Positions 7,954 through 53,310 of a stretch of DNA of 64,000 nt are shown here, in pieces. Both the position numbers and the translations under genes were made by a program. Location: positions 1 to 64,000 of the IMG/VR virus record IMGVR_UViG_3300031159_000070; one strand, given 5' to 3'. Source of the DNA: a virus. The notes below the pieces were generated by a model. That model saw only the letters and a list, made by a program, of their open reading frames with translations. It made no database searches and was not told the DNA's origin. The stretch's first letter is position 1. Each line of letters opens with the position of its first letter.

Positions 7954-8010
7954 GCCCAATCTCCTGTCTGACGTCGAACTGATAATTTAGGACCGGCCTT
8001 TCGCTCAGGC

Positions 8011-8454
8011 TCAGGCCTGGGGCGATACGCGCGTACCGGTTTCCATTGATTTCGCCAGCGTGCTCAATCCGCTGACGAAGCTGTTGCGCTGACCCTCCGG
8101 GACAGCATCGAGGATCATTCGGTCGACTTCCTCCGCGGCAACTCGAACCTCATTAAGCAGACCCCTACCGAGCTCGGTGAGCCTCACATCATAGGCACGC
8201 ATGTCGCTGCGGTTACGCCTTCTGGTGATCAGCCTCTTGCCAATCAGTCGACGGATCACATCAGCCAGCGTCGAGCGATCGATACCCGTTCTGCGCACCA
8301 GATCGGTCTGCGATGCGGTTCCCAGTTTCTGCAGTGTGTCGAGCACCACGAATTGCCGCGGCGTCAGGCCTTTGGCTTTTTCTCCAAACAGCGCGTCGGT
8401 GTTCTGCGCCGCGCGATGCATCAAGTGAACGATCGAAAAGTTTGTGATACGCAT
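8011..8454 (-). CDS. MarR-family transcriptional regulator
   Basis: HLMHRA..LTPRQFVVL..SQTDLVRRTGIDRSTLADVIRRL..RRR..DMRAYDVRLT. Confidence 0.88.
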   Translation of the reverse strand: MRITNFSIVHLMHRAAQNTDALFGEKAKGLTPRQFVVLDTLQKLGTASQTDLVRRTGIDRSTLADVIRRLIGKRLITRRRNRSDMRAYDVRLTELGRGLLNEVRVAAEEVDRMILDAVPEGQRNSFVSGLSTLAKSMETGTRVSPQA

Positions 8455-13632: not shown

Positions 13633-14753
13633 GTCGCCATCCATGATGGTAGATCTGATCCCGTGATAAGCTCGATTGGTTCATCGAGGATCCACATATC
13701 TGTGCCAAATTTCGCGAGGTTCTCGCGATAGCGATCGAGGGCCGCAAGGCGATGCTGTAGCGCCAAATCGAATGCACCATCTTGGCTAGAAAACTCATAG
13801 CCTTTTGCAATGGGCGCCCCAGTTTTACTGTAGAACACCCATATCCAAGTGTAACCATTTGCGGTATCGGATGCCTCGTTCTGCGGTCGCACTTTCGCGA
13901 ACGCCTTCAGCCACTTCTGCGGTGGTGTCTTTTCCTCTGTTCCGAACACCTTGCCTTCCTCGGCGAAGCGGCGCGCCATCTCGCGGCCGACCTGATAGTG
14001 CGCGGCCTGGATATCGTAGCGATAGTTCGCGATCGCGCTGCGAACGGCGTGATCGAACGCCTTCTGCATGGGATTGACGATGGACTTGAGATCGACCGTC
14101 TCAAGCAACCGCAGGTAGTCGATCCGCGCTTTGCACGGCACGCCATCCTCGCGCCAGAAGATCGACACCTCCGGATAGCCGCCGGTGAAGCTCTTGGCGA
14201 TTGACGGGTTTTTGACGATCATCTGTGCCGAGAGCACGATCTCGCGCCACACGTCAGGCTTGAGCAGAGTCTGGCCCGACGCGAGCGCATCGGCGATGAG
14301 GTCATCCCAGAACAGGGTGCCGGGTGCTGCCGCTCTCAGCCGCTCCATCAGCTCTTCCTTCTTGCCGGTGAGCGGCCCGATGCCGAGCTCTCGCATCCTG
14401 GCCTTGATGTCGTCGATCGTCTTGAGCGCGTTGGGATAGTCCTCGATCTGAGGCATCTGGGCATAGGCAGACTGAAACGCTTCCTCGCCCTCGAGCACGA
14501 ACTTGTGGAAGGCGCTGCCCCACACGAGCGCGTCCGCGTCGCGCGGCTTGCGCAGCGGGTTCATCCAGCTCTCCCACCAGTAATAGGGCGCGCCCGCAAA
14601 AAGCCGGATCACGTCATGCGATCCGAGCGATGGGTCGGCATGGTAGACGTCTTCAGGCAGCCCGAAGTAAACTCCCTCCGGCATCGGCTCGCGAGTGCCA
14701 TCTTCCTGCCGGGGGGCCTCGCTCATGTCGTTCATGATGAGCCCTTTGGTCAC
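13629..14753 (-). CDS. RecE/exonuclease VIII-like PD-(D/E)XK nuclease with SAP-like insertion
   Basis: YHADPSLGS, WGSAFH, PEVSIFW, CKARIDYL, VDLKS, YDIQAAHY. Confidence 0.85.
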   Translation of the reverse strand: MTKGLIMNDMSEAPRQEDGTREPMPEGVYFGLPEDVYHADPSLGSHDVIRLFAGAPYYWWESWMNPLRKPRDADALVWGSAFHKFVLEGEEAFQSAYAQMPQIEDYPNALKTIDDIKARMRELGIGPLTGKKEELMERLRAAAPGTLFWDDLIADALASGQTLLKPDVWREIVLSAQMIVKNPSIAKSFTGGYPEVSIFWREDGVPCKARIDYLRLLETVDLKSIVNPMQKAFDHAVRSAIANYRYDIQAAHYQVGREMARRFAEEGKVFGTEEKTPPQKWLKAFAKVRPQNEASDTANGYTWIWVFYSKTGAPIAKGYEFSSQDGAFDLALQHRLAALDRYRENLAKFGTDMWILDEPIELITGSDLPSWMAT

Positions 14754-14794
14754 GATCTTGTCGAGGAAGCATCATGCTACGAGACTCGATGACC

Positions 14795-14811
14795 GTCAAG
14801 GCACACTAGAC
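14795..14811. promoter_or_regulatory. 17-bp operator-like site on the leftward (recE) promoter
   Basis: GTCAAG-GCACA-CTAGAC; minus strand TTGACG-17-CATGAT. Confidence 0.72.
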
Positions 14812-14820
14812 TAATCGCAC

Positions 14821-14854
14821 AAGACAAAGCCGTCGTGCAGATCCGCACGACGGC
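14821..14854 (-). terminator. Terminator after the repressor gene
   Basis: GCCGTCGTGC/GCACGACGGC stem followed by TTTGTCTT on the minus strand. Confidence 0.65.
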
Positions 14855-14877
14855 CTGATGATTTTAGCGGCGATGGA

Positions 14878-15543
14878 TCATCGGCTGCCGATGATGACGT
14901 GCTCGATCATCGTCCCGAGAAACACCGGCTGATGTGCGAGCGTCACCAACTTCGGTTCGAAGAAACGGTTGTCAAACTCCAGCGTGAAGGGCGGCTGGCC
15001 GGCACGGGATTCAGGAGATGGCTTGTAGCGGCCGAATTTTATTTCCTGAGAGGAAAGAAGCGCGACCAGGATGCAATCACCGGGCTCTGGTATGCGCTCA
15101 GGATCGACAACGACGATGTGCCCGACCTCGAAGCGCGGCTCCATGGCCCGATCGAAGACATCGAAGCATAAAGCACGCGCAGAAACAGGCGATTGGGTAT
15201 AGCGGACCTTGTTTATGTCCTCCAGGTTCTTGCGCCCGGTCGCGACGTCGAGGATTTCTCCCGGATCGAGGTTCGGCACGGCAGTACCCTCCTGCAACTG
15301 CAACTTCACATTGCTTTCGCCAGACCCGATGCCGGTCAACAGCCACGTCACGTCGACGCCAACGATCTTCGCCACCTTGACCACATCGAACACTGTGATC
15401 TCCGAACGGCCGGTCTCCCAGTGGCTGACCAGCTGTTTCGACACGTCCATCAACCGGGCAATTTCTTGCTGGCTAATCTTCGCGTCCGTTCGCGCCTTGC
15501 GTAGCCTCTGCCCGAATTTAGTCCTCTGGTCTGACCTAGCCAT
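14878..15543 (-). CDS. CI-like repressor (XRE HTH plus S24-like domain)
   Basis: ISQQEIARLMDVSKQLVSHWETG..WLLTG; MEPRF..GHIVVVDP..PGD; divergent from a Cro-like gene. Confidence 0.88.
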   Translation of the reverse strand: MARSDQRTKFGQRLRKARTDAKISQQEIARLMDVSKQLVSHWETGRSEITVFDVVKVAKIVGVDVTWLLTGIGSGESNVKLQLQEGTAVPNLDPGEILDVATGRKNLEDINKVRYTQSPVSARALCFDVFDRAMEPRFEVGHIVVVDPERIPEPGDCILVALLSSQEIKFGRYKPSPESRAGQPPFTLEFDNRFFEPKLVTLAHQPVFLGTMIEHVIIGSR

Positions 15544-15580
15544 CTAACACCCCTGAATTAACGCTGCAGGCTGGTGCGCC

Positions 15581-15597
15581 GTCAAGCTCCACTCGAC
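15581..15597. promoter_or_regulatory. Operator-like palindrome in the cI/cro switch
   Basis: GTCAAG-CTCCA-CTCGAC; halves overlap back-to-back -35 boxes (plus TCGACT-17-TATATT; minus TTGACG). Confidence 0.65.
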
Positions 15598-15630
15598 TTT
15601 TTGAACAAGTGTGGTTATATTCCCGGCGCT

Positions 15631-15906
15631 ATGGGAACGAATGTTAAGCGTGCAAGGGACCCTGCTCTGGCGCAGGCAATCGCGAACATCGGCGGCGAAG
15701 CCGAGACGGCGCGGCGCATGGGTGTGTCCAAGCAGGCCGTGTGGTGGTGGTATCGGTGCCCGTCCCACCATGTCAAAGACATGGAGCGGGAATCCGGTGT
15801 GCCGCGCTGGCTTCTGCGTCCCGATCTGTTTGATCCTCCCGACTTCGAGCAGGAACATGATGCGTTCGATTCATCGTTAACCGATCCCCTGAAGGCGTCC
15901 GGCTAG
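15631..15906 (+). CDS. Cro/YdaS-like regulator
   Basis: AIANIGGEAETARRMGVSKQAVWWW..SGVPRWLLRPDLF. Confidence 0.85.
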   Translation: MGTNVKRARDPALAQAIANIGGEAETARRMGVSKQAVWWWYRCPSHHVKDMERESGVPRWLLRPDLFDPPDFEQEHDAFDSSLTDPLKASG

Positions 15907-16022
15907 TGTCTTGATGCGTCAAGACGGCGTACGAGAGTCATACCCTATCAAACCGGAATAGTCAGTGCTCGTGCAGTTACGCGCGTAGAATTTTTTCTTG
16001 ACCTCAAGGCGCGAGGGCTCTC

Positions 16023-16739
16023 GTGGCACAAGACAAGCTAGAACGCAAGGCTATCCATAGGGTTAACGGCTCAAACTCATGCGAAGCTGTCACTGGCGCA
16101 GCGTCGAGCTGGTCACCGTGGAATGAGGAGCGCACCAACAAGCTCATCGCGCTTTGGAACGCCGGCAAGTCCACTGACGCGTGTGCCGAAGCGCTTCGTG
16201 TCAGCAGGTCTGCCATCATCGGCAAGCTCAGTCGTCTACGTCGCGCCGGGGTGACGCTGCGGCCGACGCACGAGCGCGTCATCGTTGACGGAAAGCTGGT
16301 CGACGCGCGCGTGGCCCATGCCAAGGCGACGCTGCGCAAGAAACAGCGCCAGAAGGGCGAAGTCGCGCCGGCCAGAAAACCACGGCGGATCGTGCCAGAC
16401 CTTCCGAAGATCGAGAGCAAGCCGTGTCCGCCAAAGCCAGCGCGCCGAGATTCCCAGGCGCCGCGCGAGCGGATCGATCTCGATATGGTACTGTCGGAGG
16501 ATACCAGCGATCTCATTTTCGATGTGATCGAGCTCGAGCCTCACCACTGCCGCTGGGTCGTCGGCGATCCCGCTCTTGGCGTTGGTCACTTTGGATGGTG
16601 TAAGCGCCCTAAGGTCCCCGGGGGGCGCTGGTGCAAGGTTCACCAGAACGTCGTGGATCGTGCCTGGCGCCATGGGGATGAAGCCGCCGCTGATGATGAG
16701 GTCTCGTCTGCAGAGGTTCCGGAGCTCGAGCAGGTGTGA
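16023..16739 (+). CDS. GcrA-like cell-cycle regulator
   Basis: WNEERTNKLIALWNAGKS..SRSAIIGKLSRL; ELEPHHCRWVVGDP..WC..WCKVH. Confidence 0.85.
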   Translation: MAQDKLERKAIHRVNGSNSCEAVTGAASSWSPWNEERTNKLIALWNAGKSTDACAEALRVSRSAIIGKLSRLRRAGVTLRPTHERVIVDGKLVDARVAHAKATLRKKQRQKGEVAPARKPRRIVPDLPKIESKPCPPKPARRDSQAPRERIDLDMVLSEDTSDLIFDVIELEPHHCRWVVGDPALGVGHFGWCKRPKVPGGRWCKVHQNVVDRAWRHGDEAAADDEVSSAEVPELEQV

Positions 16740-17095
16740 TGGTGGGTCAGCGTCTTATCGCTGACGCGGTGCTGCCCAGACCACCGCTTTCGGTGCTCGA
16801 TCCGGCCGGCGATGTCGAGGCTTGGCGGTGCTGGAGTTTCGACGTGTTGCTGGCGCTGGCGCTTGCCGGCGCGCAGCGAACCTCTGGACCAGTACGCGTA
16901 ACCGTTGGCCTCCCCCAGTCGGGTACGCCTCAGAAGAACAAGCTGATCGTGAACGCCATCATGGCGCTGCTGGTCGGCGAAAGGATCGTCGAAAGCAAAG
17001 AGAGTGTCGTTGACGTGTGCGTGCGTCTGGTCGCTGACCAAGGTCTGCGGCTGGATCTTACGAGATGCGAGCTGAGGGAGCAGAGCGAGGAGTAA
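16739..17095 (+). CDS. Hypothetical protein, possibly degenerate RusA-like fold
   Basis: GPVRVTV..AIMALLV..IVE..VVDV resembles RusA, but the DxDN and DD catalytic motifs are absent. Confidence 0.4.
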   Translation: MVGQRLIADAVLPRPPLSVLDPAGDVEAWRCWSFDVLLALALAGAQRTSGPVRVTVGLPQSGTPQKNKLIVNAIMALLVGERIVESKESVVDVCVRLVADQGLRLDLTRCELREQSEE

Positions 17096-17156
17096 GCCAA
17101 AGGTCTCGTGTGGCGCCGGCGAACGCTGCAACGGGCCCAGTTCTGGAGCACGCAAA

Positions 17157-18521
17157 ATGCGAACAAAAACAAAGCCGCAGGGGTCCTATCCTCTGGCCGT
17201 GTTCGCCTTCCTTGTCGGGCTGGCGATTGCGGCTCTCGTCCTCTTCGCGAATTGGCAGTTCGGCCACACGTTGGGGTTGTCAGAAGCCGGGAAGTGGACT
17301 CAGTCTGGTCTCACCGTTGGCATCGATGTCGGCTTTGCCGTCGCCGCCGCGGCAACAGGCTGGCTGCTCAGGCGACGGATGCCGATGTGCATCGTGACAG
17401 GGCTCGTTGCATTCGCGTTCGGGCTTTTCACCTTCACCTCTCTCGTCGGCTGGAGTGCATCCGAGCGTGTAGCTAAGGCCGACATCGCCTTGGCCGAAGC
17501 CAAGGCAGAGCATGCTCTCGCTCAGGAGACCAACGACCTCATCAAGAGCGAGCGAAAGGAGCTGCTCGACTGGGCGCGCTCGACGACCGCCAAACGTATG
17601 CCGACGGCCCGTCGGCGCGAGATCCTGACGACGTTGAAGGACGTCATGGATCAGCCGCCGAAGCTGCAGAAGGTCATCGATGTCGAGAGCGTCGCCTTCG
17701 ATGCGCAGGCTGACGTGCTCGTCAAGACCTTGGCTCTCTTCGGGTTCGATCTCGACAAGCGCGATGTCCTGCTCGTCATGATCGTCTGGCTCGCCGGCCT
17801 GGGGATCATCGGCAAGGGCTTTTTCCTTGCGCTCGGCGCTTACCTGTGGCCGTCGCGCGATTTCGCACGCCACGACGGAGATCGTGTCCGCGAGCTGAGC
17901 GAGGTTGCAGACCTTTCGACCGCGATGTCGCTGCCACGTCGGCCGGACAACGATGTCGAGCCTGCTGCGATGTCTACTGCAGACCTTTTGTCATCCGAGA
18001 GGTCGCAGGATGAAGAGATCGCGCATCCAGTCGAAAGGTCTACAGCCGAGGTCGCGCTCGCCGAAAGGTCTACAGTAGACATCTCGCGTGTCGAAAGGTC
18101 TACAGCAGACATCTCGCACACCGAAAGGTCTACAGCAGAGGTCGCACATGATGAGACGGATGCGAGCGAGGTCGCTGATCTCATTGTGAGCGCTATCGAG
18201 AGCGAGCATGCCGACAAGCCCAATCGCAAGTTGACGGCTGAACGGTCGTATCAGCTCGCTCTCGTCAAGCTCTTCCTTGCAGAGGAGACGCGGCCAGATC
18301 GCAACGCAAAGCATACTGCCACCTTCTTCCACGAGCGCTTCAAGCGCTGGGTTGCAGCCAAGGATCTCGGCATCGAGATGTCGCTCAATGCCTTCGGCGC
18401 ACGCTGCAACGAGCTTGGGGTGCAGAAGCTCGATAAAGGACGCTGCGTGCTCTATCTCGGCATGGCGCCCGTCAGCGATCTCCCGCCGGCTGAGGAGGTG
18501 CCGGGGGCCGCAGCGGCCTAA
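17157..18521 (+). CDS. Multi-pass membrane protein with repeat linker and C-terminal winged-helix-like domain
   Basis: About four hydrophobic helices, coiled coil, ERST repeats, C-terminal FLAEET..FHERFKRW..SLNAFG..LG..K..LYLG. Confidence 0.7.
   Translation: MRTKTKPQGSYPLAVFAFLVGLAIAALVLFANWQFGHTLGLSEAGKWTQSGLTVGIDVGFAVAAAATGWLLRRRMPMCIVTGLVAFAFGLFTFTSLVGWSASERVAKADIALAEAKAEHALAQETNDLIKSERKELLDWARSTTAKRMPTARRREILTTLKDVMDQPPKLQKVIDVESVAFDAQADVLVKTLALFGFDLDKRDVLLVMIVWLAGLGIIGKGFFLALGAYLWPSRDFARHDGDRVRELSEVADLSTAMSLPRRPDNDVEPAAMSTADLLSSERSQDEEIAHPVERSTAEVALAERSTVDISRVERSTADISHTERSTAEVAHDETDASEVADLIVSAIESEHADKPNRKLTAERSYQLALVKLFLAEETRPDRNAKHTATFFHERFKRWVAAKDLGIEMSLNAFGARCNELGVQKLDKGRCVLYLGMAPVSDLPPAEEVPGAAAA
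17906..18150. repeat. 30-bp tandem repeats (core CGAAAGGTCTACAG x4) plus two inverted copies
   Basis: Cores at 18032, 18062, 18092, 18122; inverted copies at 17906-17918 and 17969-17990. Confidence 0.9.
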
Positions 18522-18552
18522 GCCCGTCGGCTGGTCGGGCTGGTCCCGGGCC

Positions 18553-18885
18553 GGCGGGCGATTGCTGGTATGTTCGCAACACCAATGAGGCGCAACCCAT
18601 GATCCCTATCCGATCACCTTGACCCGACTCCGATTTTCGTCCAGCGTGGCTAGACCACGAAACGGGTGCAAGCGGTTGCGATGGCTGCTGCACCCGGGAG
18701 GATCGGGGCCAACGGATACGGAGAGATCTGATCCGCCCGGTTCTCGAGTGACGATGGCGCGGGCTCTCATGCCTTCCGACCCGCGCAAGTCTTGCGAAGG
18801 CGCCAGTCGCGTACCTAGCGACCCATGGCCGGCGGGCTCCCGACCGGCCATGACATTTGCCAGTCGCCCGTTCGCAAGCGTTTTT
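18553..18885 (+). ncRNA. Candidate large structured RNA
   Basis: Closing helix 18553-18564/18861-18872 encloses many nested hairpins; no convincing ORF. Confidence 0.5.
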
Positions 18886-18914
18886 CCCAGCTCCGTTGCT
18901 GTAGCAGTCAGTCC

Positions 18915-19012
18915 AAAAGACTTCAGGCTCGCCCCCGACGGTGAGCGAGCCTGAAATCCGGTCTGTAACATCAGTCGTGATGCTGAAAGCCGGGGAAGCG
19001 TCTGGCATCACG
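18915..19012 (-). ncRNA. Candidate antisense RNA in the dnaB leader, ending in a terminator
   Basis: Hairpins 18976-19012 and 18922-18955, the latter followed by TCTTTT on the minus strand; weak TTGATC-17-TACTAG upstream. Confidence 0.35.
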
Positions 19013-19091
19013 GAAGGTCTAGTAACACGAGTTTTCGTGCCGATCAAGCGTCTATCAGCAATTTTTCCAGCAACTCTCCACAGAGCCGGGG

Positions 19092-20498
19092 ATGATGGAC
19101 AAACCGCAGGAAATCGGATCGGCAGAGCCGCACAATGCGGAAGCCGAGCAGGCTGTTCTGGGCGCGGTGCTGGCGGACAATTCCGTCTTCGACCGCCTGG
19201 CCGGAACGATCAAGCCGGAAGACTTCTACGAGGAGCTGCACGGCGATCTTTTCAAGGCGATCAGCGATCTCATCAACGATGGCCGGCGTGCCGATATCGT
19301 CACGCTCTCGCCGGTGCTCAAAGGGCGCAAGATCGGCGAGGTTGATGCCGCCTCATACGTCTATGCGCTGCCCGACATGGCGCCGGCCGCGCCGGAACAG
19401 CTCTGGGATTATGCGCAGGAGATTGCCCGCTACGCCGCACAGCGCTCAATCTTGGCGGCCTCGCGCGATCTCGCGCGGGGTGCTGCGAAGATCGGCGCCG
19501 ATCTCGCTGACGCGACATCGCGAGCTGTCGAGCGCATCGATCGCGCACTCGATCGCACCCGGGCCCAAGAGGAAACAGCAAAGCCGGCCGGCGCCTTTGG
19601 CTTTGATGCGATCGAAGCCTACGACGCTGAAGGGCAAAGCCTCTCGACCGGGCTGAAAAGCCTCGACGACATCACCGGCGGCCTTTTCCTGCAGGAGCTG
19701 TCGATCATCGGCGGACGCCCCGGCATGGGGAAGTCAACCTTTGCGACCACGCTCGCCTTCAACATCGCGAACGCGGGGACCGGGGTCTATTACCTGTCGC
19801 TGGAGATGGCCGGCGTGCCGCTCGCGCAGCGCATCCTGTCATCGATGTGCTACGTGAGTCCCACCAACTGCATCCCTTACGAGAAGTTTCGCAAGCGGCA
19901 ATTGCAGCCGAGCGAGATCGCGGCGCTGAAAACCGCCGCGCGCGATCTCGAGCGCCTGCCGTTCATCATCGAGACCAAGGCGGGGTTGAACCTTCTGCAG
20001 ATCCGCGCCTCCGTGCGCAAGGCGCAAGCGGAGATCGAGGCGCGCGGCAAGCATCTGCGCTTCATCGTCGTCGACTACCTGGGTCTGGTCGAGCCGTCGC
20101 ATCAGTGGCGCGACAACCGCGTGCAGCAGCTCGCTGAGCTGACGAAAGGGTTCCGCGAGATGGCGAAGGCGATGAACGCGCATGTGTGCCTGCTCGTGCA
20201 GCTCAACCGCGAGGTCGAGAAGCGCGAGGACAAGCGCCCCCAGTTGCACGACCTGAGAGAGTCAGGCGCCATCGAGCAGGACGCCGATCTCGTGATGCTC
20301 TGCTACCGCCAGGAATACTACGTCCAGCGCGAAGGCGAGTACAAGGACCCGGTCAAGGAGCAAGACCGCCAGGACCGGCTCCACGCCTGCGAGAACAAGC
20401 TCGACATCATCATTCCGAAGCAGCGCATGGGCGAGGTCGGCGTGCGCACGCTCTTCTGCTCGGTTGCCAATAACCGCATCGATGATCTGACGTTCTAA
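19092..20498 (+). CDS. dnaB: Replicative DNA helicase DnaB-like
   Basis: PHNAEAEQAVLG, GGRPGMGKS, SLEM, VVDYLGL, QLNREVE, LRESGAIEQDAD. Confidence 0.95.
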   Translation: MMDKPQEIGSAEPHNAEAEQAVLGAVLADNSVFDRLAGTIKPEDFYEELHGDLFKAISDLINDGRRADIVTLSPVLKGRKIGEVDAASYVYALPDMAPAAPEQLWDYAQEIARYAAQRSILAASRDLARGAAKIGADLADATSRAVERIDRALDRTRAQEETAKPAGAFGFDAIEAYDAEGQSLSTGLKSLDDITGGLFLQELSIIGGRPGMGKSTFATTLAFNIANAGTGVYYLSLEMAGVPLAQRILSSMCYVSPTNCIPYEKFRKRQLQPSEIAALKTAARDLERLPFIIETKAGLNLLQIRASVRKAQAEIEARGKHLRFIVVDYLGLVEPSHQWRDNRVQQLAELTKGFREMAKAMNAHVCLLVQLNREVEKREDKRPQLHDLRESGAIEQDADLVMLCYRQEYYVQREGEYKDPVKEQDRQDRLHACENKLDIIIPKQRMGEVGVRTLFCSVANNRIDDLTF

Positions 20499-20508
20499 GG
20501 GGGAAGCC

Positions 20509-21624
20509 ATGGCAGGGATCGGTCACAACTCTGGCATAAGCCTCGACGCGGTGGTCGAGGAAAATCTCAGGCGTGGCTTGTACCTTGTTCAGCGCGACGT
20601 GCTGATCGCAGCTACCCGCGATCCGCGGCTCGGACATCGGCACCGGGTCGTGCTTTGCGAGATTATCGAGCGCATGAACTCAGAGACCGGTCTCGCCTAT
20701 CCCGGTCGCAAGCTGCTCGCCGAAGACTCGTCGCGGTGGCTCGTGAGCAGAGAGCGCGATACCTATTCGGAAAGCGGCATTGCGAAGACGATCTCCGAAC
20801 TGATCAATTTCGGCTACCTTGTTTCCGAGCGTCGATCGCCGCCTGGCAGCCGGCGGGCAATCGCGCACTACACGATTGCCAAGCCGAGTATCGAGGAGCT
20901 GCAGGAGCAGATCACGATCGCCATTCAGCAAATCCGGCGCAAGGACGGCAGCCGAAGGCCTCAGATCCAGGGTCAGCTCGACCTTTCGCTGCCGCCCGAA
21001 AGCGATACGAGAAGACGTAACGTTACCCCCTCAGGTAACGATACCCCCCAAGCACGTAACGATATGCCCCAGAGAGGTAACGTTACGTGGAAGGCTGATG
21101 TTACCCCCGTCGCGGGTGCTGACGTTACCACAGGTCCGGAGGCTAACGTTACCCCAGGTACGGCGACAGGAACTAGTATAGGAACTAGTCTAGGAACTAG
21201 TTCTCTCTCTCCCCCTACCCCCTCTCAGCGCGAGCCGGCGCGAGCGAGCGAGCAGCGTCATAACCACATCGATCTTGGTCATGGGGTGAGCTTCGATGGA
21301 GAGACGATCAAGCACGCATGCTTCGCGATCCACGTTCCGTCTATCGAATACCGGGTCATGGGAGTCGCCGTGAGCAAGGAACGCGTGCTTGCGACGGCAA
21401 AGGCATCCGCTCTGCAGTGGGCAGTGGAAATCGAGAACGGCAAGTCTCCAAGTCATGTGGTGCCCCAGTACATTCCGGGGGCGATCGCATCGACTCTCAT
21501 TCGCGAAGCGAGATACGCAGAGGCGCATTCAGCCAGCATAGAGCGCCGGCGATCCGCGCAATCGAGTGATCATCGTGGCCGCGTTCGTTTTTCGAGCAAT
21601 GGAGGAAACCATGGACGCAGATAG
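20509..21624 (+). CDS. Phage replication initiator (N-terminal wHTH)
   Basis: AYPGRKLLA..I..LINFGYL; internal iteron-like repeats; follows dnaB. Confidence 0.75.
   Translation: MAGIGHNSGISLDAVVEENLRRGLYLVQRDVLIAATRDPRLGHRHRVVLCEIIERMNSETGLAYPGRKLLAEDSSRWLVSRERDTYSESGIAKTISELINFGYLVSERRSPPGSRRAIAHYTIAKPSIEELQEQITIAIQQIRRKDGSRRPQIQGQLDLSLPPESDTRRRNVTPSGNDTPQARNDMPQRGNVTWKADVTPVAGADVTTGPEANVTPGTATGTSIGTSLGTSSLSPPTPSQREPARASEQRHNHIDLGHGVSFDGETIKHACFAIHVPSIEYRVMGVAVSKERVLATAKASALQWAVEIENGKSPSHVVPQYIPGAIASTLIREARYAEAHSASIERRRSAQSSDHRGRVRFSSNGGNHGRR
21017..21201. repeat. Probable origin: seven GTAACGTTAC-like iterons then three 12-bp GGAACTAGT repeats
   Basis: Iterons at 21017, 21035, 21056, 21077, 21095, 21119, 21143; GGAACTAGT at 21169, 21181, 21193. 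Confidence 0.8.
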
Positions 21625-22318
21625 GACAGATCTCAATGGAAAGCCTGTCGATCCAGAAGCTGCCGATCGTGCAATTGAGTGCTTCATCGAACCCATGCTC
21701 GACGTGTTTCGTCTGGTGCGTGACGAGAACACGCAGAACCGCGTGATACGGGCCTACGCGCTGCATCTTGCGCGTTTTGATGAGCATACGCTGGCGCGTG
21801 CTCTCGAGTGGTTCGAAGCCAACCGCAAGGACCCGTTCATGCCGACGATTGCGGAATGCATTGAGTGCTGCGAACGTATTTATTCGCAGACTGACGAAGC
21901 CAAGCTCGAAACGGCATTCGGGCGGCTTTACCCGCTTGGCGGTGGCCCGCGTGAGATGTGGGACCAGAACCTCGGCGAACCGCCAGGGCATCCGGCATGC
22001 AAGCTTTCCCGTGCGATCCAGGCGCGGAAGTGGCGCGAGCGTTTGGAGTGGTTCCGCAACCTGGCCCTCGGCAAAATTGGTGGCGTGCCGCGGGGCTTCA
22101 AACCCCCACAGAGCGCTGCAAGCCTTGGATATGGTCTCCACCGCCTCCTGCTCAACTACTACGACATCGACACCACGAATCGCGACACATGCCCGGTTCC
22201 CATTGAGCTGCTGGAGGAGTTCGATGTTCCGGTTACGAGTGAAGAGGTCGAGCTTCGCATTCGACTTGAGTGCCAAGAGCGTGCTGCCGCGGTGGATCAA
22301 GCCAATACTCGGCATTGA
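21611..22318 (+). CDS. Hypothetical replication protein (possible helicase loader/inhibitor)
   Basis: L..AL......F.PTIAE motif; directly after the initiator. Confidence 0.5.
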   Translation: MDADRTDLNGKPVDPEAADRAIECFIEPMLDVFRLVRDENTQNRVIRAYALHLARFDEHTLARALEWFEANRKDPFMPTIAECIECCERIYSQTDEAKLETAFGRLYPLGGGPREMWDQNLGEPPGHPACKLSRAIQARKWRERLEWFRNLALGKIGGVPRGFKPPQSAASLGYGLHRLLLNYYDIDTTNRDTCPVPIELLEEFDVPVTSEEVELRIRLECQERAAAVDQANTRH

Positions 22319-22352
22319 CGAACCACGCGACGTCTCTCATTTTGCTTGGAAA

Positions 22353-22369
22353 GTCTAGCTACACTTGTC
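22353..22369. promoter_or_regulatory. 17-bp palindromic operator-like site
   Basis: GTCTAG-CTACA-CTTGTC, intergenic. Confidence 0.65.
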
Positions 22370-22420
22370 GTGCTGTTTCCCGTGAAACAATGTGGCTAGA
22401 CCGATGAAGGGGTGAGCGCG

Positions 22421-22963
22421 ATGATCATCAACAACCTTCTTACGCGGTGGTTGGCGACGATGCTTGCATCCTGCTGTGCCAAGGTGGTCGATCGGCGAAC
22501 TTATGACGTGGCGATTGGCGGTGACTTCGCGCCCTACCTGCTCAGATGGTATTTGATCCCGCGCAATCGGTTTCTCAACGTCTATCTGCATGTCTTCATG
22601 CGCGATGACGATGATCGCGCCCTACACGATCATCCTTGGTGGTCGGCGTCATTGCTGTTGGGTCAGCTCGTCAATTCCTTTGATGGCGGCGTAGCGGTCT
22701 GGCGCCAGTCCCACATGACGGAGATTTACCGCGACAAGAGCGGTGCCGATCTGGAGCGCGACGTCAAGTTTGGTGATCTCGTATTCCGTGGTGCCAGCTT
22801 TGCTCATCGCATGGTCGTGCCGAAATCACGGACGATGACGCTGTTCATCACGGGACCGCGCATCAGGACGTGGGGATTTCTTTGTCCGAATGGATGGCGC
22901 AACTGGCGTGAGTTCACCGCGACCGATGAGCATGGTCGCATGCGTGGATGCGGGGAGACCTGA
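22421..22963 (+). CDS. Cupin-like phage protein
   Basis: YLLRWYLIPRN..YLH..DDDRALHDHPW..HR..TLFITGP. Confidence 0.65.
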   Translation: MIINNLLTRWLATMLASCCAKVVDRRTYDVAIGGDFAPYLLRWYLIPRNRFLNVYLHVFMRDDDDRALHDHPWWSASLLLGQLVNSFDGGVAVWRQSHMTEIYRDKSGADLERDVKFGDLVFRGASFAHRMVVPKSRTMTLFITGPRIRTWGFLCPNGWRNWREFTATDEHGRMRGCGET

Positions 22964-22964
22964 G

Positions 22965-23312
22965 ATGTCCTCGCCCTCAACGCCGTGCCAGTTTCTTGAT
23001 GGTCGGGTCATTCTGCACGGTGGCGATTGCCGAGACGTTCTCGCGACTTTGCCGGATGAGTACGTCGATAGCGTCGTGACCCCGCCGGGTGGAACGGTTC
23101 TTGATCCTTTCGCCGGCACGGGAACGACTGGCGAAGCCGCATGGCGGGAAGGGATGCGCGCCATCCTGATTGAGCGTGAGCCGGAATATCAGGCCGATAT
23201 CGAGTGGCGTATGGAACTTGCTGTGAACCCCACCAAGCGCGCCGCGGTTGCGAAAACGAAGAACAATCTCGTTGATCCAGAGACGCTACCTCTGTTTTCC
23301 GGGGGAGGTTGA
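22965..23312 (+). pseudogene. N4/N6 DNA methyltransferase with large in-frame internal deletion
   Basis: GDCRDVL..VDSVVT joined directly to PPGGTVLDPFAGTGTT; catalytic DPPY and the middle region are missing. Confidence 0.8.
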
Positions 23313-23313
23313 C

Positions 23314-24201
23314 ATGCTCTCACCTGATCAGACCTACGAGGAAAAGGCGCGCTGGTACGTCGAAAAGCTCAACTGGCCCGTCTTTCCGCTGCATGACGTC
23401 TGGCGCGGCCGGTGCTCGTGTCGCGATGGCGAGAAGTGCGAGCGGCCTGGCAAGCATCCGCGCACGCGCAACGGCTTCAAGGATGCTTCCCGCGATCTCG
23501 AGCTTATCGAGCTGATCAGCGCCGAGGTCCCGCACGCCAATCTCGCAGTTCCGACCGGTGCGGCTTCGGGGATCGCTGTCGTCGACATCGATGGCGAGCG
23601 CGGCGAGCAGTCTGTTCAGGTGCTTGCCGAGCGCAATTTCATTTTCCCCGAGACGGCGACCGTGCGCACTGGCCGCGGCCGGCATCTCTACTACCGGCAC
23701 GTCTCCGGCCTGCGCAATTCGGCGTCCGTACTGATGCCAGGGATCGATATCCGCGGCGAGGGCGGGCAGGCGGTGCTGCCGCCATCGATGCACATCTCGG
23801 GTCGTGTCTATACCTGGGATCCCAGCCCGCTCGATTACAAGCCGCGCATCATGCCGCTCTGGGTGCTCAATCTGCTGGAGGACCTGCGCAAGAAGAAACA
23901 GGTCTCGCGTTATCACGATGAGGCGGCGGCCGGCTATCGCGGCGGGAAGTCACCTCTCGAGCGCGTGCGCTATTTCGCAGAGAGGGTCGCTTCTCTCGCT
24001 CGTGACAGCCAAAAGCGCAATGTCGAGCTCAACCGCAATGCGTTCATCGGTTTCCTGATCGCGAAAGAAACCGGGCTCAGCGATCGGGAGGTCGAGCATC
24101 ATTTCCTGGCTGCAGCGAAAGCCTGCGGTCTGCCGTTGTCCGAAGCGAGGGCGACAATCAACTCGGCGCGGCGTGGAGCTTTTTCTCAGGGGAGGCGATA
24201 G
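23314..24201 (+). CDS. Bifunctional DNA primase/polymerase (Prim-Pol domain)
   Basis: WPVFPL..GKHP..GFKDAS..ANLAVPTG..VVDID..TGRGRHLYY..DIRGEGG..PPS.H. Confidence 0.9.
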   Translation: MLSPDQTYEEKARWYVEKLNWPVFPLHDVWRGRCSCRDGEKCERPGKHPRTRNGFKDASRDLELIELISAEVPHANLAVPTGAASGIAVVDIDGERGEQSVQVLAERNFIFPETATVRTGRGRHLYYRHVSGLRNSASVLMPGIDIRGEGGQAVLPPSMHISGRVYTWDPSPLDYKPRIMPLWVLNLLEDLRKKKQVSRYHDEAAAGYRGGKSPLERVRYFAERVASLARDSQKRNVELNRNAFIGFLIAKETGLSDREVEHHFLAAAKACGLPLSEARATINSARRGAFSQGRR

Positions 24202-24378
24202 CGTTGCGCGGGTCTCTGCGGGAAGTGGTAAAGACCGAGATCAATCGAGTTCTTGAAGAGGCGTCAGAGCTGCTCGAAAGGGCCGAGCGGCTGAAGGATG
24301 AGTCCGTGGCGTATACGCGTGAAGCGATAACCATGATCAAAACAGCGCATCACCTCGAGCGCGTACTGCTGACGGACA

Positions 24379-24795
24379 ATGCAAAAGAGAAAAGCGCCAA
24401 AGCGCCAATCCATTAAGCGCAGAGAACAGGCGATCCAGAAGGCTGTTGCCGAGCTGCTGGACACAGCAGGGCGGCCAGGCCTCGTCTGGTTTCATGTCCC
24501 GAACGGCGGTGCCCGCAGTCCGGTCGAGGCGGCGATCTTCAAGGGTCTGGGCGTCAAACCGGGCGTTCCTGACATCTTCGCTTTCTATCAAAGCGCGCTC
24601 TACGTTCTCGAGCTCAAAACCGAGGACGGAACGCTTTCGGATGATCAGCGCATCATGCTGGAGCAGCTAGCCGCGGCCGGCGCGCACACTGCGGTTGCTT
24701 ATGGCGTCGATCAAGCGATAACCGTTCTGAAGAGCTGGGGCCTTGTTCGTGTTCACGACAGCCGGCCAACCTCTATCGCGGAGGCTGCCGAATGA
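24379..24795 (+). CDS. VRR-NUC domain nuclease
   Basis: WFHVPNGG..GVKPGVPDI..LELK..LSDDQ. Confidence 0.85.
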   Translation: MQKRKAPKRQSIKRREQAIQKAVAELLDTAGRPGLVWFHVPNGGARSPVEAAIFKGLGVKPGVPDIFAFYQSALYVLELKTEDGTLSDDQRIMLEQLAAAGAHTAVAYGVDQAITVLKSWGLVRVHDSRPTSIAEAAE

Positions 24796-25019
24796 CGGAG
24801 AATCAGCGCAGGGCGATCTGGGTCCACTCTGCTGCCATGGGGCTGGTCCTGCAGGCCTGGCGCATCGGCGTGCCGCCTGAGATGTTCTTTCCCTGGGCGA
24901 TGATGGTGATGGCTCTCGATGATGAGCAGCGCGCGCGTCGCTTACTGGCCGACATCGAGATCCGCATTCAGGATGCTGCAGAGGTCGCAGCACGCGATGA
25001 CGCGAGATCGCGGCCATGA
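24792..25019 (+). CDS. Hypothetical protein
   Basis: ATGA-coupled ORF. Confidence 0.45.
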   Translation: MTENQRRAIWVHSAAMGLVLQAWRIGVPPEMFFPWAMMVMALDDEQRARRLLADIEIRIQDAAEVAARDDARSRP

Positions 25020-25657
25020 CGAGCTTCATTCAGCCGAGTATGTTCAGCATCGGGCCGCAAAGCTGGCCGTTCGGCGATCTCGAGCCGCAGGCTTACTCGC
25101 TCATCATGTGCGACCCACCGTGGCTCTTCCGGAATTACAGCGATCTCGGTGATGAAAAAGGGCCGGCGCCGCATTACGACATGATGACGGACGAAGAGAT
25201 TTTCGCGCTGCCCGTTGGCGATCTCGCGCGCGACAACTGCATGCTGTGGCTCTGGGCGACATGGCCCAAGCTCGATACGGCGATGTCGGCAATCCAGGTG
25301 TGGGGCTTCGAATACAAAACAGGCGGCAGCTGGGACAAACTGAAATGGGGCACCGGCTATATCTGGCGATCTCGCTGCGAGCCGGTGCTGATTGCGACAA
25401 GAGGATCACCGCTCATCAAAGGCAGCGATATCGCGAACCTCTTTGCTGAGCGATCTCGCGAGCACTCGCGCAAACCGCAATGCGCTTACGAGATCGCGGA
25501 GCGGATGATGCCGAACGCGCGTCGTGTCAGCCTTTTCGAGCGTCCGGTGCGTCCGGGCTGGGAAGCCTGGGGCAATCAACTCGGCAAAGCGCCAGGCCGG
25601 CAACGGCCGAAGCGGGTGAAAGTGGATCCGCCGCTGCTCACGATCATGGAGGTGTGA
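25016..25657 (+). CDS. MT-A70-family adenine methyltransferase
   Basis: CDPPW, HYDMM, LWLWAT, WGFEYKT, GTGY, REHSRKP. Confidence 0.9.
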   Translation: MTSFIQPSMFSIGPQSWPFGDLEPQAYSLIMCDPPWLFRNYSDLGDEKGPAPHYDMMTDEEIFALPVGDLARDNCMLWLWATWPKLDTAMSAIQVWGFEYKTGGSWDKLKWGTGYIWRSRCEPVLIATRGSPLIKGSDIANLFAERSREHSRKPQCAYEIAERMMPNARRVSLFERPVRPGWEAWGNQLGKAPGRQRPKRVKVDPPLLTIMEV

Positions 25658-42929: not shown

Positions 42930-44453
42930 TTATTCCTCGTGTTTTGCGGCTTTCGATTTGATTATTGACTGCGAAACGATTGCAGCCATCAATGCAGGCT
43001 CGTTTCCTCCTTTCTCGTCATGAAGTTATCTGCTTTTGTTCCTTACGCTGCTCTCGGACATCCCAGATGTATCCGAGGTACTTGCGGCAGTTGGAACAGT
43101 AGGCGTCATGGCCGCTTGTGTAATACGTCTTGTGCGGGCACCGTGACTGGCGGCGCTCAAGTCTCCAGCCAGCGATGGCGGCGTAGACGAAGAGGGCGAT
43201 CAAAAGCAGCGCGATCACCAGGAGCGGCGCGACGATATTCCAGCCGATCCAGGCCCAAACGGCATTCCACATCCACTGCATTTAGTTCTGCCTCAGCTTC
43301 CAGGTTGCGATGGCCGCGTAAATGATGAGCCCGACAACCAAGATGATCGGAAGCGAAAGCAGAGCGATCACGTCCCAGGTGAGCCAGAACCAGATCCAAT
43401 CCATGATCCTTCCCTTCCGCGCGTTGTGCCGGCGGGTGCCTGGCGGATAGGCGCCCGCCGGCTTCGGCAGGCGGATCGAGGGGAAAACGCCTGCCGGTCA
43501 CCGCCTTGCGGCGGGACCTCTACTGGATCGTGCGCTGTTTGAGTGCCGCCTTGCGGGTCTTGCGCACGACCTTCTCGTCGAGTTTCATGATCTCTTCGTC
43601 GCCGATATCGTGCGGCATGTCGTCGGCGCTCTCGTAGGGATAGGCGATTTTGTTGATCTCGTTGAGTTTCTCATTCAGAGACTTGAATTTCTCCACCTGC
43701 TCGCGCACGAATTTGCTGCGACCCTGTTTTTTCCAGTGACCGATGGCATATGTGACGGCTTCTTGCGCCAGTGCGATGTCATTGCCTGTCAGTTTCATGG
43801 GTCACCTCTTTTCGATCTCAGTCTCATCAGACTTGCTGTCACCATGGAGCGCCTTGTGCGCCTTTCTCATCGCCGCTTCCCACGCCGCGGCGTCGCGCAT
43901 GAGCGGTGGTCCGTTTTGCACGGCCATCAGCTCCTCGAGCGCCTCCTTGAGTTCAAGGACGGCGTTGAGAACCAGGAAATCTTCTGCTTTGCCGCGATTG
44001 GTCAGGGTTTCTTCGGGCACGCGGCGCGCGCGGAACTTCACGCGATACCTGGGCGATTGCATCTCTTCGTAGGCGTATGATCCGTCAGGCAAATGCCTCA
44101 ACGTCCGAAATACCTGGAACTGCAGCTCGTGCACCAGGCCACAGTCGCAGCACACCATGGTGTAAGACGACATTTCCGGCTGGATCCATTCCGTCCAGTC
44201 GGCCTCGTTTTCGACGTCGTGCTTCATTCCTCGAATCCCGCCAGCTCTCGGGAGCGCCGCACGGCGTAGTCATCCGGCTTGCCGCCGCTGTTTTCGTAGA
44301 GACGGCCGCACTGTTCCTCGCGAAGGCAAAACGGCGGTGATTGCCAGATGCCGATCATCTCGGTGCGCGCGCAGATCTCAGTGACCGGAAAGCCGTTGAT
44401 GCAGTAGCCGTTGACGAGCGCGCTGCAGGGGATGAAGCGTTCCTGCCGGTTCA

Positions 44454-51000: not shown

Positions 51001-51273
51001 GGGTGTCTTCGGCATACCCGGCGCGCTGCTTTGGCGTGATAACGCGCGCTAAGTCTTCAACGGCCATGGCATCTCTCTCCGTACACAGGGAAATGGGGCA
51101 CTCCGCAACCTGCAGCCTCAATGGAGTGCCCCGCCTGGATTTCTTCCTATGTCGATCAGTTGCTACTTCATGGCTCGCCTCCTGGTTCGATGATGTCTCG
51201 TCAACCTATTGGCGAGGAGTATAGTAGCACTGGTCTCCTGGGACACAAAGCCGCCTGTCCGGCTCGTCAACCG

Positions 51274-52425: not shown

Positions 52426-52605
52426 GACCACTCTCCGTACTTGGTGCCTCTTGACAAGAGACTCAGGTGTCGTCATCTTCCAGCCCAGCTTCGCTCTTTC
52501 CAAAAGGTGTCGTCGCCGGGCACCAAAGTTCGCAATGAAGGTCGGTCAAAAGCCGGCCTTCTCTCGTTTCGAGTGTCGTGATGATAGGTCGGAACGAGGC
52601 TGTCC

Positions 52606-52622
52606 GTCCAGTGACACTAGAC
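52606..52622. promoter_or_regulatory. 17-bp operator-like site over a minus-strand promoter
   Basis: GTCCAG-TGACA-CTAGAC; minus strand TGGACG-18-TATCAT. Confidence 0.68.
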
Positions 52623-53310
52623 CAGATCGGCTATGAAAAAGGCCGGCTGGGAGCCGGCCATCGGGGCTTGCGGAGGCGGAAGAGCTAGCAGATTGGATCT
52701 GCTAGCGTCCAGCCGTTGCCATTGCATCGCGGGCATAAATCGCCAGAACGGCTGATCATCTCGATTGTTTTCGGCTTGCTTCTCTTCTTGTAGACAGTGC
52801 GGATCGTTCGGATCGGTGCTCCTGTTACCCGGCCGATGCCTCGGCAGCACACGCACGTCCTGGCCGGCACTTCCACCGGTCCATCTGCTGTCCTGATGCA
52901 CGCAACGAATCTGGCCATCACACTCAACCACCGCAGAAACGTGGCTAGTCAGCATGACTAGCCAGGATAAATCTACTCTCACCAAGCACAATTTGACAAT
53001 GCGCAAGGCTAGAGGCGAGAGTGTGGCCAGATTGTGAAAAAGCTCAGGAGTCGAGTTTCTGTGGTCGGATAAAAACCACACCGTCCTCCACGCTCGTGAC
53101 CTCGAGCTGGCCGGACTTGATAAGCTCAGTCACGGCGAAGTCGCATGGCGTCTGCCGCAACTCGTCGACATCCTCGATCCGGATCACGGCAGCGTTGATG
53201 GGGCCGGTTACTTCGATGATGACGTTTTCTGGCACCCCTGCATCGATGAGCATGCGTTTCGCCATACCTTTACTCTCCCCTAGAGCGCGCACACACACAA
53301 AGAAAATGCT

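Follow-up and report, generated by a model that had tools for sequence, protein, structure and literature searches.

A possible composite untranslated leader in front of dnaB in an alphaproteobacterial-type provirus

In the provirus recorded in IMG/VR as IMGVR_UViG_3300031159_000070, a gap of 570 bp (18522-19091) lies between the stop codon of an open reading frame (ORF) of 454 amino acids (aa) and dnaB, which encodes a replicative helicase. The source record is 137 kb long with 60% GC, and the window analysed here, to which all positions refer, is its first 64 kb. The gap is non-coding. We tentatively propose that it is a composite, cis-acting untranslated leader within an intercistronic mRNA, built from separate elements and not from one folded domain, which gates the expression of dnaB. 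This is put forward as a possibility and no more strongly, because every functional step in it, namely transcription through the gap, the action of Rho, the antisense RNA and the effect on dnaB, is inferred.

A preliminary description of 18553-18885 had offered three readings: an unrecognised non-coding RNA (ncRNA), a complex leader controlling replication genes, or a structured origin or priming signal in single-stranded DNA (ssDNA). The complex leader is favoured here because the gap is non-coding, lies inside a plus-strand operon and has its strongest structure specifically as sense RNA, and because a consensus scan gave no terminator-like site upstream and nothing promoter-like. A large branched ncRNA finds no support. 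The elements proposed to make up the leader are given below in order, with the other features of the gap; P is the pairing probability.

18472-18568, plus strand: hairpin across the stop codon of the 454-aa ORF, arms 18472-18491 and 18549-18568
18565-18652, plus strand: poorly structured, C-rich, G-poor tract of about 85 nt, resembling a Rho utilisation (rut) site by composition and folding
18645-18659, plus strand: hairpin Ha, 5-bp stem with loop CUAGA (P 0.77-0.97), opening the sense-strand-specific three-hairpin RNA block 18645-18745
18663-18696, plus strand: hairpin Hb, 8 bp, a bulged A and 6 bp (P 0.93-0.97 in all contexts)
18698-18745, plus strand: hairpin Hc, 10 + 5 + 4 bp with a 5-nt internal loop (P 0.77-0.98)
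18757-18786, strand-neutral: GC-rich hairpin, 7-bp stem GCGCGGG/CCCGCGC with a 16-nt loop (P 0.65-0.99), first of three GC-rich palindromic hairpins in 18757-18852
18806-18822, strand-neutral: hairpin GTCGC-N7-GCGAC (P 0.97-1.00)
18824-18852, strand-neutral: perfect 9-bp palindromic hairpin CATGGCCGG-N11-CCGGCCATG (P 1.00)
18881-18885, plus strand: TTTTT run
18911-18958, minus strand: convergent terminator-like element (read 18958-18911), a hairpin with 14-nt arms followed by TCTTTTGG on the minus strand, which would end a short antisense RNA
18976-19012, minus strand: second hairpin, 8-bp stem CGUGAUGC/GCAUCACG
19001-19021: isolated, degenerate iteron-like copy, 76% identical to the 21-nt reference copy and ending in GGAAGGTCTA
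19075-19092, plus strand: small hairpin in which UCUCC pairs with the GGGGA Shine-Dalgarno-like sequence of dnaB, weakly sequestering the ribosome-binding site (P 0.63-0.88)

Local hairpins and a sense-specific block

Folding was compared in four contexts (18553-18885, 18440-18900, 18400-19100 and 18300-19300). Seven local hairpins were observed to persist in every one of them, six inside 18645-18852 and the seventh at 18923-18954, beyond 18553-18885. These include four that had already been picked out in the preliminary description (18645-18659, 18663-18696, 18806-18822 and 18824-18852), which held with P 0.77-1.00 throughout.

The strongest of the structures is formed by Ha, Hb and Hc together. 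As plus-strand RNA, 18640-18750 folds at -56.0 kcal/mol (z -4.52, 0/200 shuffles as good), while its complement folds at -36.7 kcal/mol (z -0.39, 69/200 shuffles as good). This strand bias is due to six G-U pairs in Hb and Hc: three of the six pairs in the inner helix of Hb, and three in Hc, whose 19-bp arm is capped by a GAGA tetraloop of the GNRA type. With DNA parameters the contrast is weaker (plus z -2.91, minus z -1.79). The earlier claim that G-U pairs favour the plus strand therefore stands for 18640-18750 but not for the whole of 18553-18885, where the minus strand folds as well. Hc was also considered as a likeness of group II intron domain V and rejected, as its bulge is on the wrong side and there is no Rfam match.

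The gap was scanned finely in 100-nt windows on both strands with 60 shuffles, and together with the direct folds this picked out 18640-18750. A wide scan of 1-52745 used 958 windows, each 110 nt long, and compared both strands of every window with 20 shuffles, which makes its z-scores noisy. Only five plus and five minus windows reached z <= -4, and two of these are in the gap. On the plus strand, window 18646-18755 is tied for the lowest z (-5.83) and has the greatest plus-biased asymmetry of all 958 (-4.86; standard deviation 1.12).

The proposed branched domain

The preliminary description had drawn 18553-18885 as one domain enclosed by a long-range helix, and had named folding no better than shuffles as a ground for refuting it. 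As a whole the region folds better than shuffled sequence (plus strand -147.8 kcal/mol, z -3.25, 0/100 shuffles as good), although this does not hold for parts of it, and the minus strand gave similar values (-150.4 kcal/mol, z -2.98). As modelled, the whole of 18553-18885 is moderately structured and without strand specificity. As a local control, the plus strand of 14553-23235 was folded in 51 windows, each of 333 nt; the three that cover the gap ranked second, third and fifth (z -3.94, -2.75 and -2.42), and the iteron array described below ranked first (-4.68).

The closing helix, 18553-18564 with 18861-18872, was formed only when the sequence was cut at 18553-18885 (P about 0.9 for the helix, 0.35-1.00 for its pairs) and had P 0.00 in the three wider contexts. 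It is lost there because its 5' arm is taken over by the hairpin across the stop codon, pairing with 18473-18491 at P 0.82-1.00 (except for one unpaired position and the outermost pairs in the widest context). That hairpin, an inverted repeat with 18-nt arms that are 89% complementary, is unexceptional on its own (z -1.78 on the plus strand, -2.20 on the minus strand). Likewise, the long stem 18601-18631/18697-18728 was seen only when 18601-18730 was folded alone; in all four contexts its 3' arm instead forms Hc. Two small hairpins proposed at 18566-18584 and 18585-18600 lie in a segment, 18553-18605, with z +1.24 and 178/200 shuffles as good, and the TGGCGC/GCGCCA pairing proposed for 18755-18805 is absent from every minimum-free-energy structure. 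The T-run said to follow the domain is present at 18881-18885, but it adjoins no stem and was not called as a terminator, so that it does not amount to an intrinsic one. Since the closing helix and the long stem vanish when flanking sequence is included, a single multi-branched RNA domain of about 330 nt is not supported by these folding models.

The arms of the closing helix were also considered as the terminal inverted repeats of a miniature inverted-repeat transposable element (MITE). This was rejected, as the sequence is single-copy with no target duplication visible. More generally, within the sequences searched, the gap does not resemble a dispersed repeat, a MITE or a repetitive extragenic palindromic (REP)-like element, being single-copy in the 137-kb record and having only short chance-level matches in alphaproteobacterial genomes and none in phages or plasmids.

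The C-rich tract and signals for transcription

A C-rich, G-poor tract was observed directly upstream of the three-hairpin block. Its core, 18565-18642, has 28 C against 14 G in 78 nt, which places it at the 98.6th percentile of all 78-nt windows on both strands, and it is the third-highest such peak in the plus-strand operon (15574-25657) and the only untranslated one of the top three. With GC skews of -0.43 and -0.29 and fold z-scores of +1.1 to +2.0, it is the least structured part of the gap. An untranslated, unstructured tract of this composition with hairpins following from 18645 fits the sequence description of a Rho-dependent terminator of the lambda tR1 type (a tract of about 70-80 nt plus pause hairpins), which is a permissive one.

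A consensus scan found no promoter-like site in the gap, and a search by eye near 18618 (CTTGAC) and upstream of dnaB gave no acceptable -10. Nor does the scan place a terminator-like site on the plus strand of the gap; the only plus-strand one in 17000-20000 is at 17965-17982. The other of the two terminator-like sites called in 17000-20000 is the hairpin observed on the minus strand at 18911-18958, which lies beyond 18553-18885 and inside the same gap. Minus-strand RNA from 19050 to 18905 has z -4.52, and window 18866-18975, with a minus z of -5.53, is among the five minus outliers of the wide scan. On these models, the minus strand of 18911-19047 is a candidate antisense RNA with two or three hairpins, the last of which (14-nt arms) is followed by UCUUUUGG. 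The candidate overlaps the degenerate iteron copy at 19001-19021.

Coding potential of the gap

Position-specific GC is flat over 18530-19040, while the flanking genes have the usual pattern of the genome (about 0.4 at the second and 0.75-0.8 at the third codon position). Open frames of 111-191 aa are present in the gap, and one protein has been called there: P0010, of 178 aa, on the minus strand at 18472-19008, which is found in a public collection, comes from the source annotation and is identical to residues 14-191 of a 191-aa minus-strand ORF. It is nevertheless highly improbable that the gap encodes a protein, whether P0010 or the product of the plus-strand ORF 18619-18954. The codon log-odds of the three long ORFs are -0.17 per codon for P0010, -0.18 for the plus-strand ORF and -0.08 for a 121-aa minus-strand ORF, compared with 0.29 +/- 0.14 for in-frame chunks of long ORFs and -0.22 +/- 0.12 for off-frame readings. 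The translations are rich in Arg, Ser, Pro and Gly, and none of the gap ORFs, P0010 and the plus-strand ORF included, had a Pfam or PHROG match.

When clustered at 90% identity, P0010 is also a singleton. The 191-aa minus-strand ORF, searched exhaustively with HMMER, matched, besides P0010, one stretch of 32 residues (E 2.9e-4) among 1.84 billion representatives, these being representatives at 50% identity, so that relatives more than 50% identical to P0010 are hidden in its own cluster. Because its codon statistics are like those of non-coding sequence and it is a singleton, the P0010 gene call is probably spurious. The preliminary description had named a conserved ORF, such as 18619-18954, as something that could explain the region in another way. 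One was looked for and none was found; for 18619-18954 there was no homologue in a collection of 5.8 billion protein clusters, where 40 candidates shared words with it and 0 scored.

Searches for known families and relatives

The preliminary description saw no signature of RNase P, tmRNA, tRNA or group I or II introns, and no known RNA family could be recognised here. Rfam 15 gave 0 matches at the gathering score in the 64-kb window, and ARAGORN found no tRNA or tmRNA in it. At E <= 10, 17000-20000 gave four chance-level Rfam matches (E 0.11-6.5) to eukaryotic or archaeal microRNA, small nucleolar RNA or small RNA fragments, none of them inside 18553-18885. In the literature, no paper describing the gap element was found.

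The gap DNA had no blastn match in phages or in plasmids. Among 301 alphaproteobacterial genomes, 18 (one of them, G241, unpublished) gave chance-level matches of 20-38 nt (E 3.6e-4 to 0.0096). A single-sequence covariance model gave two chance-level matches in 151 alphaproteobacterial genomes (per-genome E 0.005 and 0.027). Patterns of the hairpins matched 2 + 6 loci in viral contigs, all unrelated, the palindromic hairpin 18824-18852 alone accounting for two unrelated loci.

The flanking proteins have few relatives as well. With tblastn, the 454-aa protein had no match in phages or plasmids, and an alignment of its family gave pattern matches in viral, genome and metagenome contigs, none of which was confirmed. 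DnaB matched 972 phage records, all below 60% identity and the best at 36%, and a DnaB alignment run against three contig collections gave 23, 3 and 1 loci at 25-36% identity with nothing like the gap. Among the 5.8 billion protein clusters, four relatives of the 454-aa protein (54-65% identity) and two of DnaB (88-90%) were found, all on short Logan contigs (2.2-9.1 kb for the former, 2.7 and 1.6 kb for the latter). By sequence, the replication module, made up of a predicted membrane-anchored, iteron-bearing protein, DnaB and a Prim-Pol, is an orphan almost without relatives in public data.

Twenty-four sequencing runs contain parts of the stretch, none of them RNA and with no bearing on expression, and four were compared. 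They gave 21 contig pieces over 17800-19600, at low depth, from phyllosphere, sludge and unlabelled samples in three studies. Eleven of the 21 matched along all or almost all of the contig with 0 differences. The remaining ten were a 193-nt contig with one difference and nine partial matches of 18-43 nt, eight of these with 1-7 other letters. The four pieces on the gap itself (18576-18833, 18821-18971, 18970-19120 and 18988-19188) had 0 differences, which leaves covariation nothing to work on; parts of the gap that the pieces leave uncovered carry no information. It appears that one and the same strain or prophage is widespread, with no variant seen.

Genomic setting

The provirus is of an alphaproteobacterial type, and the gap sits in its rightward early and replication operon, which spans 15574-25657 on the plus strand. 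The genes around it are as follows.

14878-15543, minus strand: cI-type repressor, by profile matches
15574-15906, plus strand: cro/YdaS-like gene, opening the plus-strand operon
16023-16739, plus strand: GcrA-like gene
between the GcrA-like and 454-aa genes, plus strand: 119-aa ORF
17157-18521, plus strand: 454-aa ORF, the upstream neighbour of the gap
17905-18149, within the 454-aa gene: iteron-like array, by repeat search
19092-20498, plus strand: dnaB-type replicative helicase (DnaB_C 8.6e-68, DnaB 1.4e-22, phrog_19 3.6e-90)
downstream of dnaB, plus strand: 371-aa protein, weakly replication-initiator-like (HTH_36; phrog_270 3.3e-4)
23248-24201, plus strand: stand-alone Prim-Pol of 317 aa (PF09250)
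further downstream, plus strand: VRR-NUC nuclease
25016-25657, plus strand: MT-A70 methyltransferase

The 454-aa protein had no Pfam or PHROG match. The start of dnaB is at 19092, or at 19095 according to the 467-aa database protein P0006, and the initiator-like protein, Prim-Pol, VRR-NUC nuclease and MT-A70 methyltransferase make up the part of the replication module beyond DnaB, at 20509-25657. The preliminary description was right that a gap of about 570 bp precedes dnaB in a gene-dense operon. In a codon-score gene map of 9-36 kb it is the biggest of 49 inter-gene intervals (the runner-up is 402 bp), and the remaining intervals within the operon measure -59 to 284 bp.

The iteron-like array consists of four direct repeats of 30 bp each (18030-18149), together with the core CGAAAGGTCTACAG in two inverted copies (17905-17918 and 17977-17990). 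Allowing up to 3 mismatches, this core matches 12 times, where 3.69 +/- 1.85 matches would be expected. The array falls in a linker of the 454-aa protein that is very variable in length and sequence among the four known relatives, unlike the N-terminal hydrophobic part and the C-terminal domain, which are conserved in the family. Judged from its repeats, the array is probably the phage origin, or has the origin close by. The isolated copy at 19001-19021 is weak, being missed at up to 3 mismatches to the 14-nt core.

When the pattern of the iteron pair was searched in contigs, the single match was at 2966-3005 of L050, an IMG/VR contig of 49% GC that is otherwise dissimilar. Two iteron cores are matched exactly there, with their spacing preserved. 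The phage contig is unrelated, however, and the site falls within a long ORF, over a recurrent MKGL peptide, so that the match was rejected as chance. That ORF is a putative tape-measure gene by resemblance.

Discussion

If the gap acts as an untranslated leader, ribosomes would leave the mRNA at 18521 and the naked C-rich tract could load Rho. The hairpins downstream may then serve as pause or termination points, or as signals for stabilising or processing the RNA, and an antisense RNA ended by the minus-strand hairpin and its U-run could pair with the leader about 80-180 nt ahead of dnaB. The net effect would be to limit transcription from the immunity-proximal promoter into dnaB and the initiator-like and Prim-Pol genes. 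The order of the elements in the gap is the one that a control point of this kind would be expected to have. A more specific suggestion, which we consider unlikely, is that 18645-18745 represents a cis-acting phage RNA of a new class, by which the expression level of the replicative helicase operon is set, perhaps as a processive antitermination or protein-binding element working with the convergent antisense RNA.

Several observations weigh against a leader of this kind. No homologous gap DNA was found in any collection searched, and no base pair has covariation support. GC-rich sequence easily forms stable hairpins, and single-sequence z-scores are weak evidence of function. The hairpins in 18757-18852 are about equally good on both strands (18757-18786, for example, folds similarly on either) and could act as DNA. 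The two C-rich peaks of the operon that are stronger than the tract in the gap, at 21197 and 22099, are both in coding sequence. For the antisense RNA, the consensus scan yielded no promoter. As for antitermination, the best match to the boxA consensus was no better than 2 mismatches, no antiterminator family was recognised among 18 proteins scanned (10 from the operon and 8 others), and the three-hairpin block occurs only once in the 137-kb record. Sites of the nut type in lambda and of the put type in HK022 are paired. A lambda-type nut site, with boxA and boxB in both early operons and an N-like protein, was not found.

The gap could instead be inert: decayed or filler DNA, left for example by a gene since lost or by recombination between modules, in which the hairpins are by-products of 62-78% GC and nothing but the minus-strand terminator-like hairpin and the ribosome-binding site of dnaB might matter. 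This is consistent with the lack of any homologue in the searchable collections, with whole-region z-scores that are moderate and equal on both strands, and with the finding that half of the helices first described are artefacts of context or at chance level. The flanking genes also belong to a very rare family (four and two relatives), which is typical of mosaic junctions. However, a by-product of composition should be strand-symmetric after dinucleotide shuffling, and 18640-18750 is the most strand-asymmetric fold of the 958 windows, which argues against composition alone. Phages rarely keep 570 bp of useless DNA in an operon as tight as this one, and an inert spacer is for these reasons rather unlikely. 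A discrete plus-strand ncRNA, either the 330-nt domain or a 100-nt RNA formed by the three hairpins, acting in trans or binding a protein or ligand, would account for the exceptional sense-specific fold with its GNRA tetraloop and well-defined helices, and it would be new, having no match to an Rfam family. Such an RNA would, however, lack a promoter-like site in front of it and a terminator behind Hc or 18885; its larger version collapses in context; it is single-copy in the record; and the covariance model reached only chance-level matches in the 151 alphaproteobacterial genomes. We regard it as quite improbable.

Signals that act in ssDNA at an origin would also account for structure on both strands. 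The iterons would open, and hairpins extruded from the displaced strands, a plus-strand set in 18645-18745 and a minus-strand set in 18911-19012, would be sites at which Prim-Pol primes or DnaB is loaded. The iterons are 400-900 bp upstream with a degenerate copy at 19001-19021, genes for DnaB, an initiator-like protein and a Prim-Pol are part of the operon, and the strand-specific folds are on opposite strands about 150 bp apart. The plus-strand block forms the same structure with DNA parameters (0/200 shuffles as good at the z of -2.91 given above), and the lowest GC of the gap (0.46-0.52) is at 19000-19074. There is a precedent in the IncQ plasmid RSF1010, where, according to PMC8567376, oriV contains ssiA and ssiB, inverted repeats of 40 nt on which RepB' primes. 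Here too a hexameric helicase and a dedicated primase are encoded alongside iterons, and hairpin-forming sequences lie on opposite strands near the iterons. The two strand-specific blocks here are, by contrast, 100-140 nt long and share no sequence, unlike ssiA and ssiB: no inverted pair links 18645-18745 with 18911-19012, and the only inverted pair of about 20 nt inside 18553-18885 is 18791-18810/18859-18878 (75%). The primase is a Prim-Pol (PF09250) and not RepB'. The contrast between the strands is far greater with RNA than with DNA parameters, since it is based on G-U pairs and so favours RNA, and the minus-strand element looks like an ordinary intrinsic terminator. Scans for the DnaA, CtrA and IHF consensus motifs gave nothing better than 2 mismatches, and there is no marked AT-rich unwinding element. 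Origin signals of this type are therefore considered improbable.

An untranslated leader gating dnaB would have its closest likeness in phage lambda, where nutR-tR1 and the oop antisense RNA lie upstream of the replication genes O and P. In both phages an untranslated stretch of the rightward early operon separates immunity-proximal from replication genes, a C-rich unstructured tract is followed by hairpins, a short convergent element with a hairpin and U-run lies just upstream of the replication genes, and iterons are inside the preceding or adjacent coding sequence. The gap described here differs in having no sequence similarity, no recognised boxA or boxB and no N-like protein, in being several times longer and far more GC-rich, and in that the Rho role and the antisense RNA are in this case our proposal. 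If the leader does gate dnaB, it could be the alphaproteobacterial equivalent, unrelated in sequence, of the region that controls the early operon of lambda, and could offer a handle on the timing of a rare replication module after induction.

The hairpins also resemble the R sites of phage T7, RNase III signals that separate early cistrons; as there, long and irregular hairpins with internal loops are predicted here on the sense strand only. The T7 sites are, however, single hairpins about 60 nt long in short intervals between genes, while the spacer here is 570 nt. The ssNA-helicase motif, a structured RNA or ssDNA candidate upstream of helicase genes, resembles the gap in being a structured non-coding element directly before a helicase gene and in its ambiguity between RNA and ssDNA. 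It differs in that 17000-20000 gave no relevant Rfam match, the presence of the motif in the Rfam copy being unconfirmed. In the literature, its name was found in one unrelated paper only.

The main value of the analysis is negative, in that a large branched ncRNA is unsupported and the minus-strand gene call is probably spurious. What remains is the 100-nt sense-specific hairpin block and the antisense terminator-like hairpin.

Other features of the window

GANTC, the CcrM-type methylation site, is strongly depleted over the whole window, with 124 observed against 379 +/- 18 in shuffles. The phage carries both a GcrA-like protein and an MT-A70 methyltransferase. The only GANTC of the gap is at 18626-18630, within the C-rich tract.

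In the wide scan, the other windows with z <= -4 are 1376-1485, 7976-8085, 43891-44000, 50326-50435, 51151-51260 and 52526-52745. Of these, 1376-1485 is strong on both strands and 7976-8085 on the minus strand alone (z -5.99). Terminators, or regulatory hairpins of another sort, are the probable explanation.

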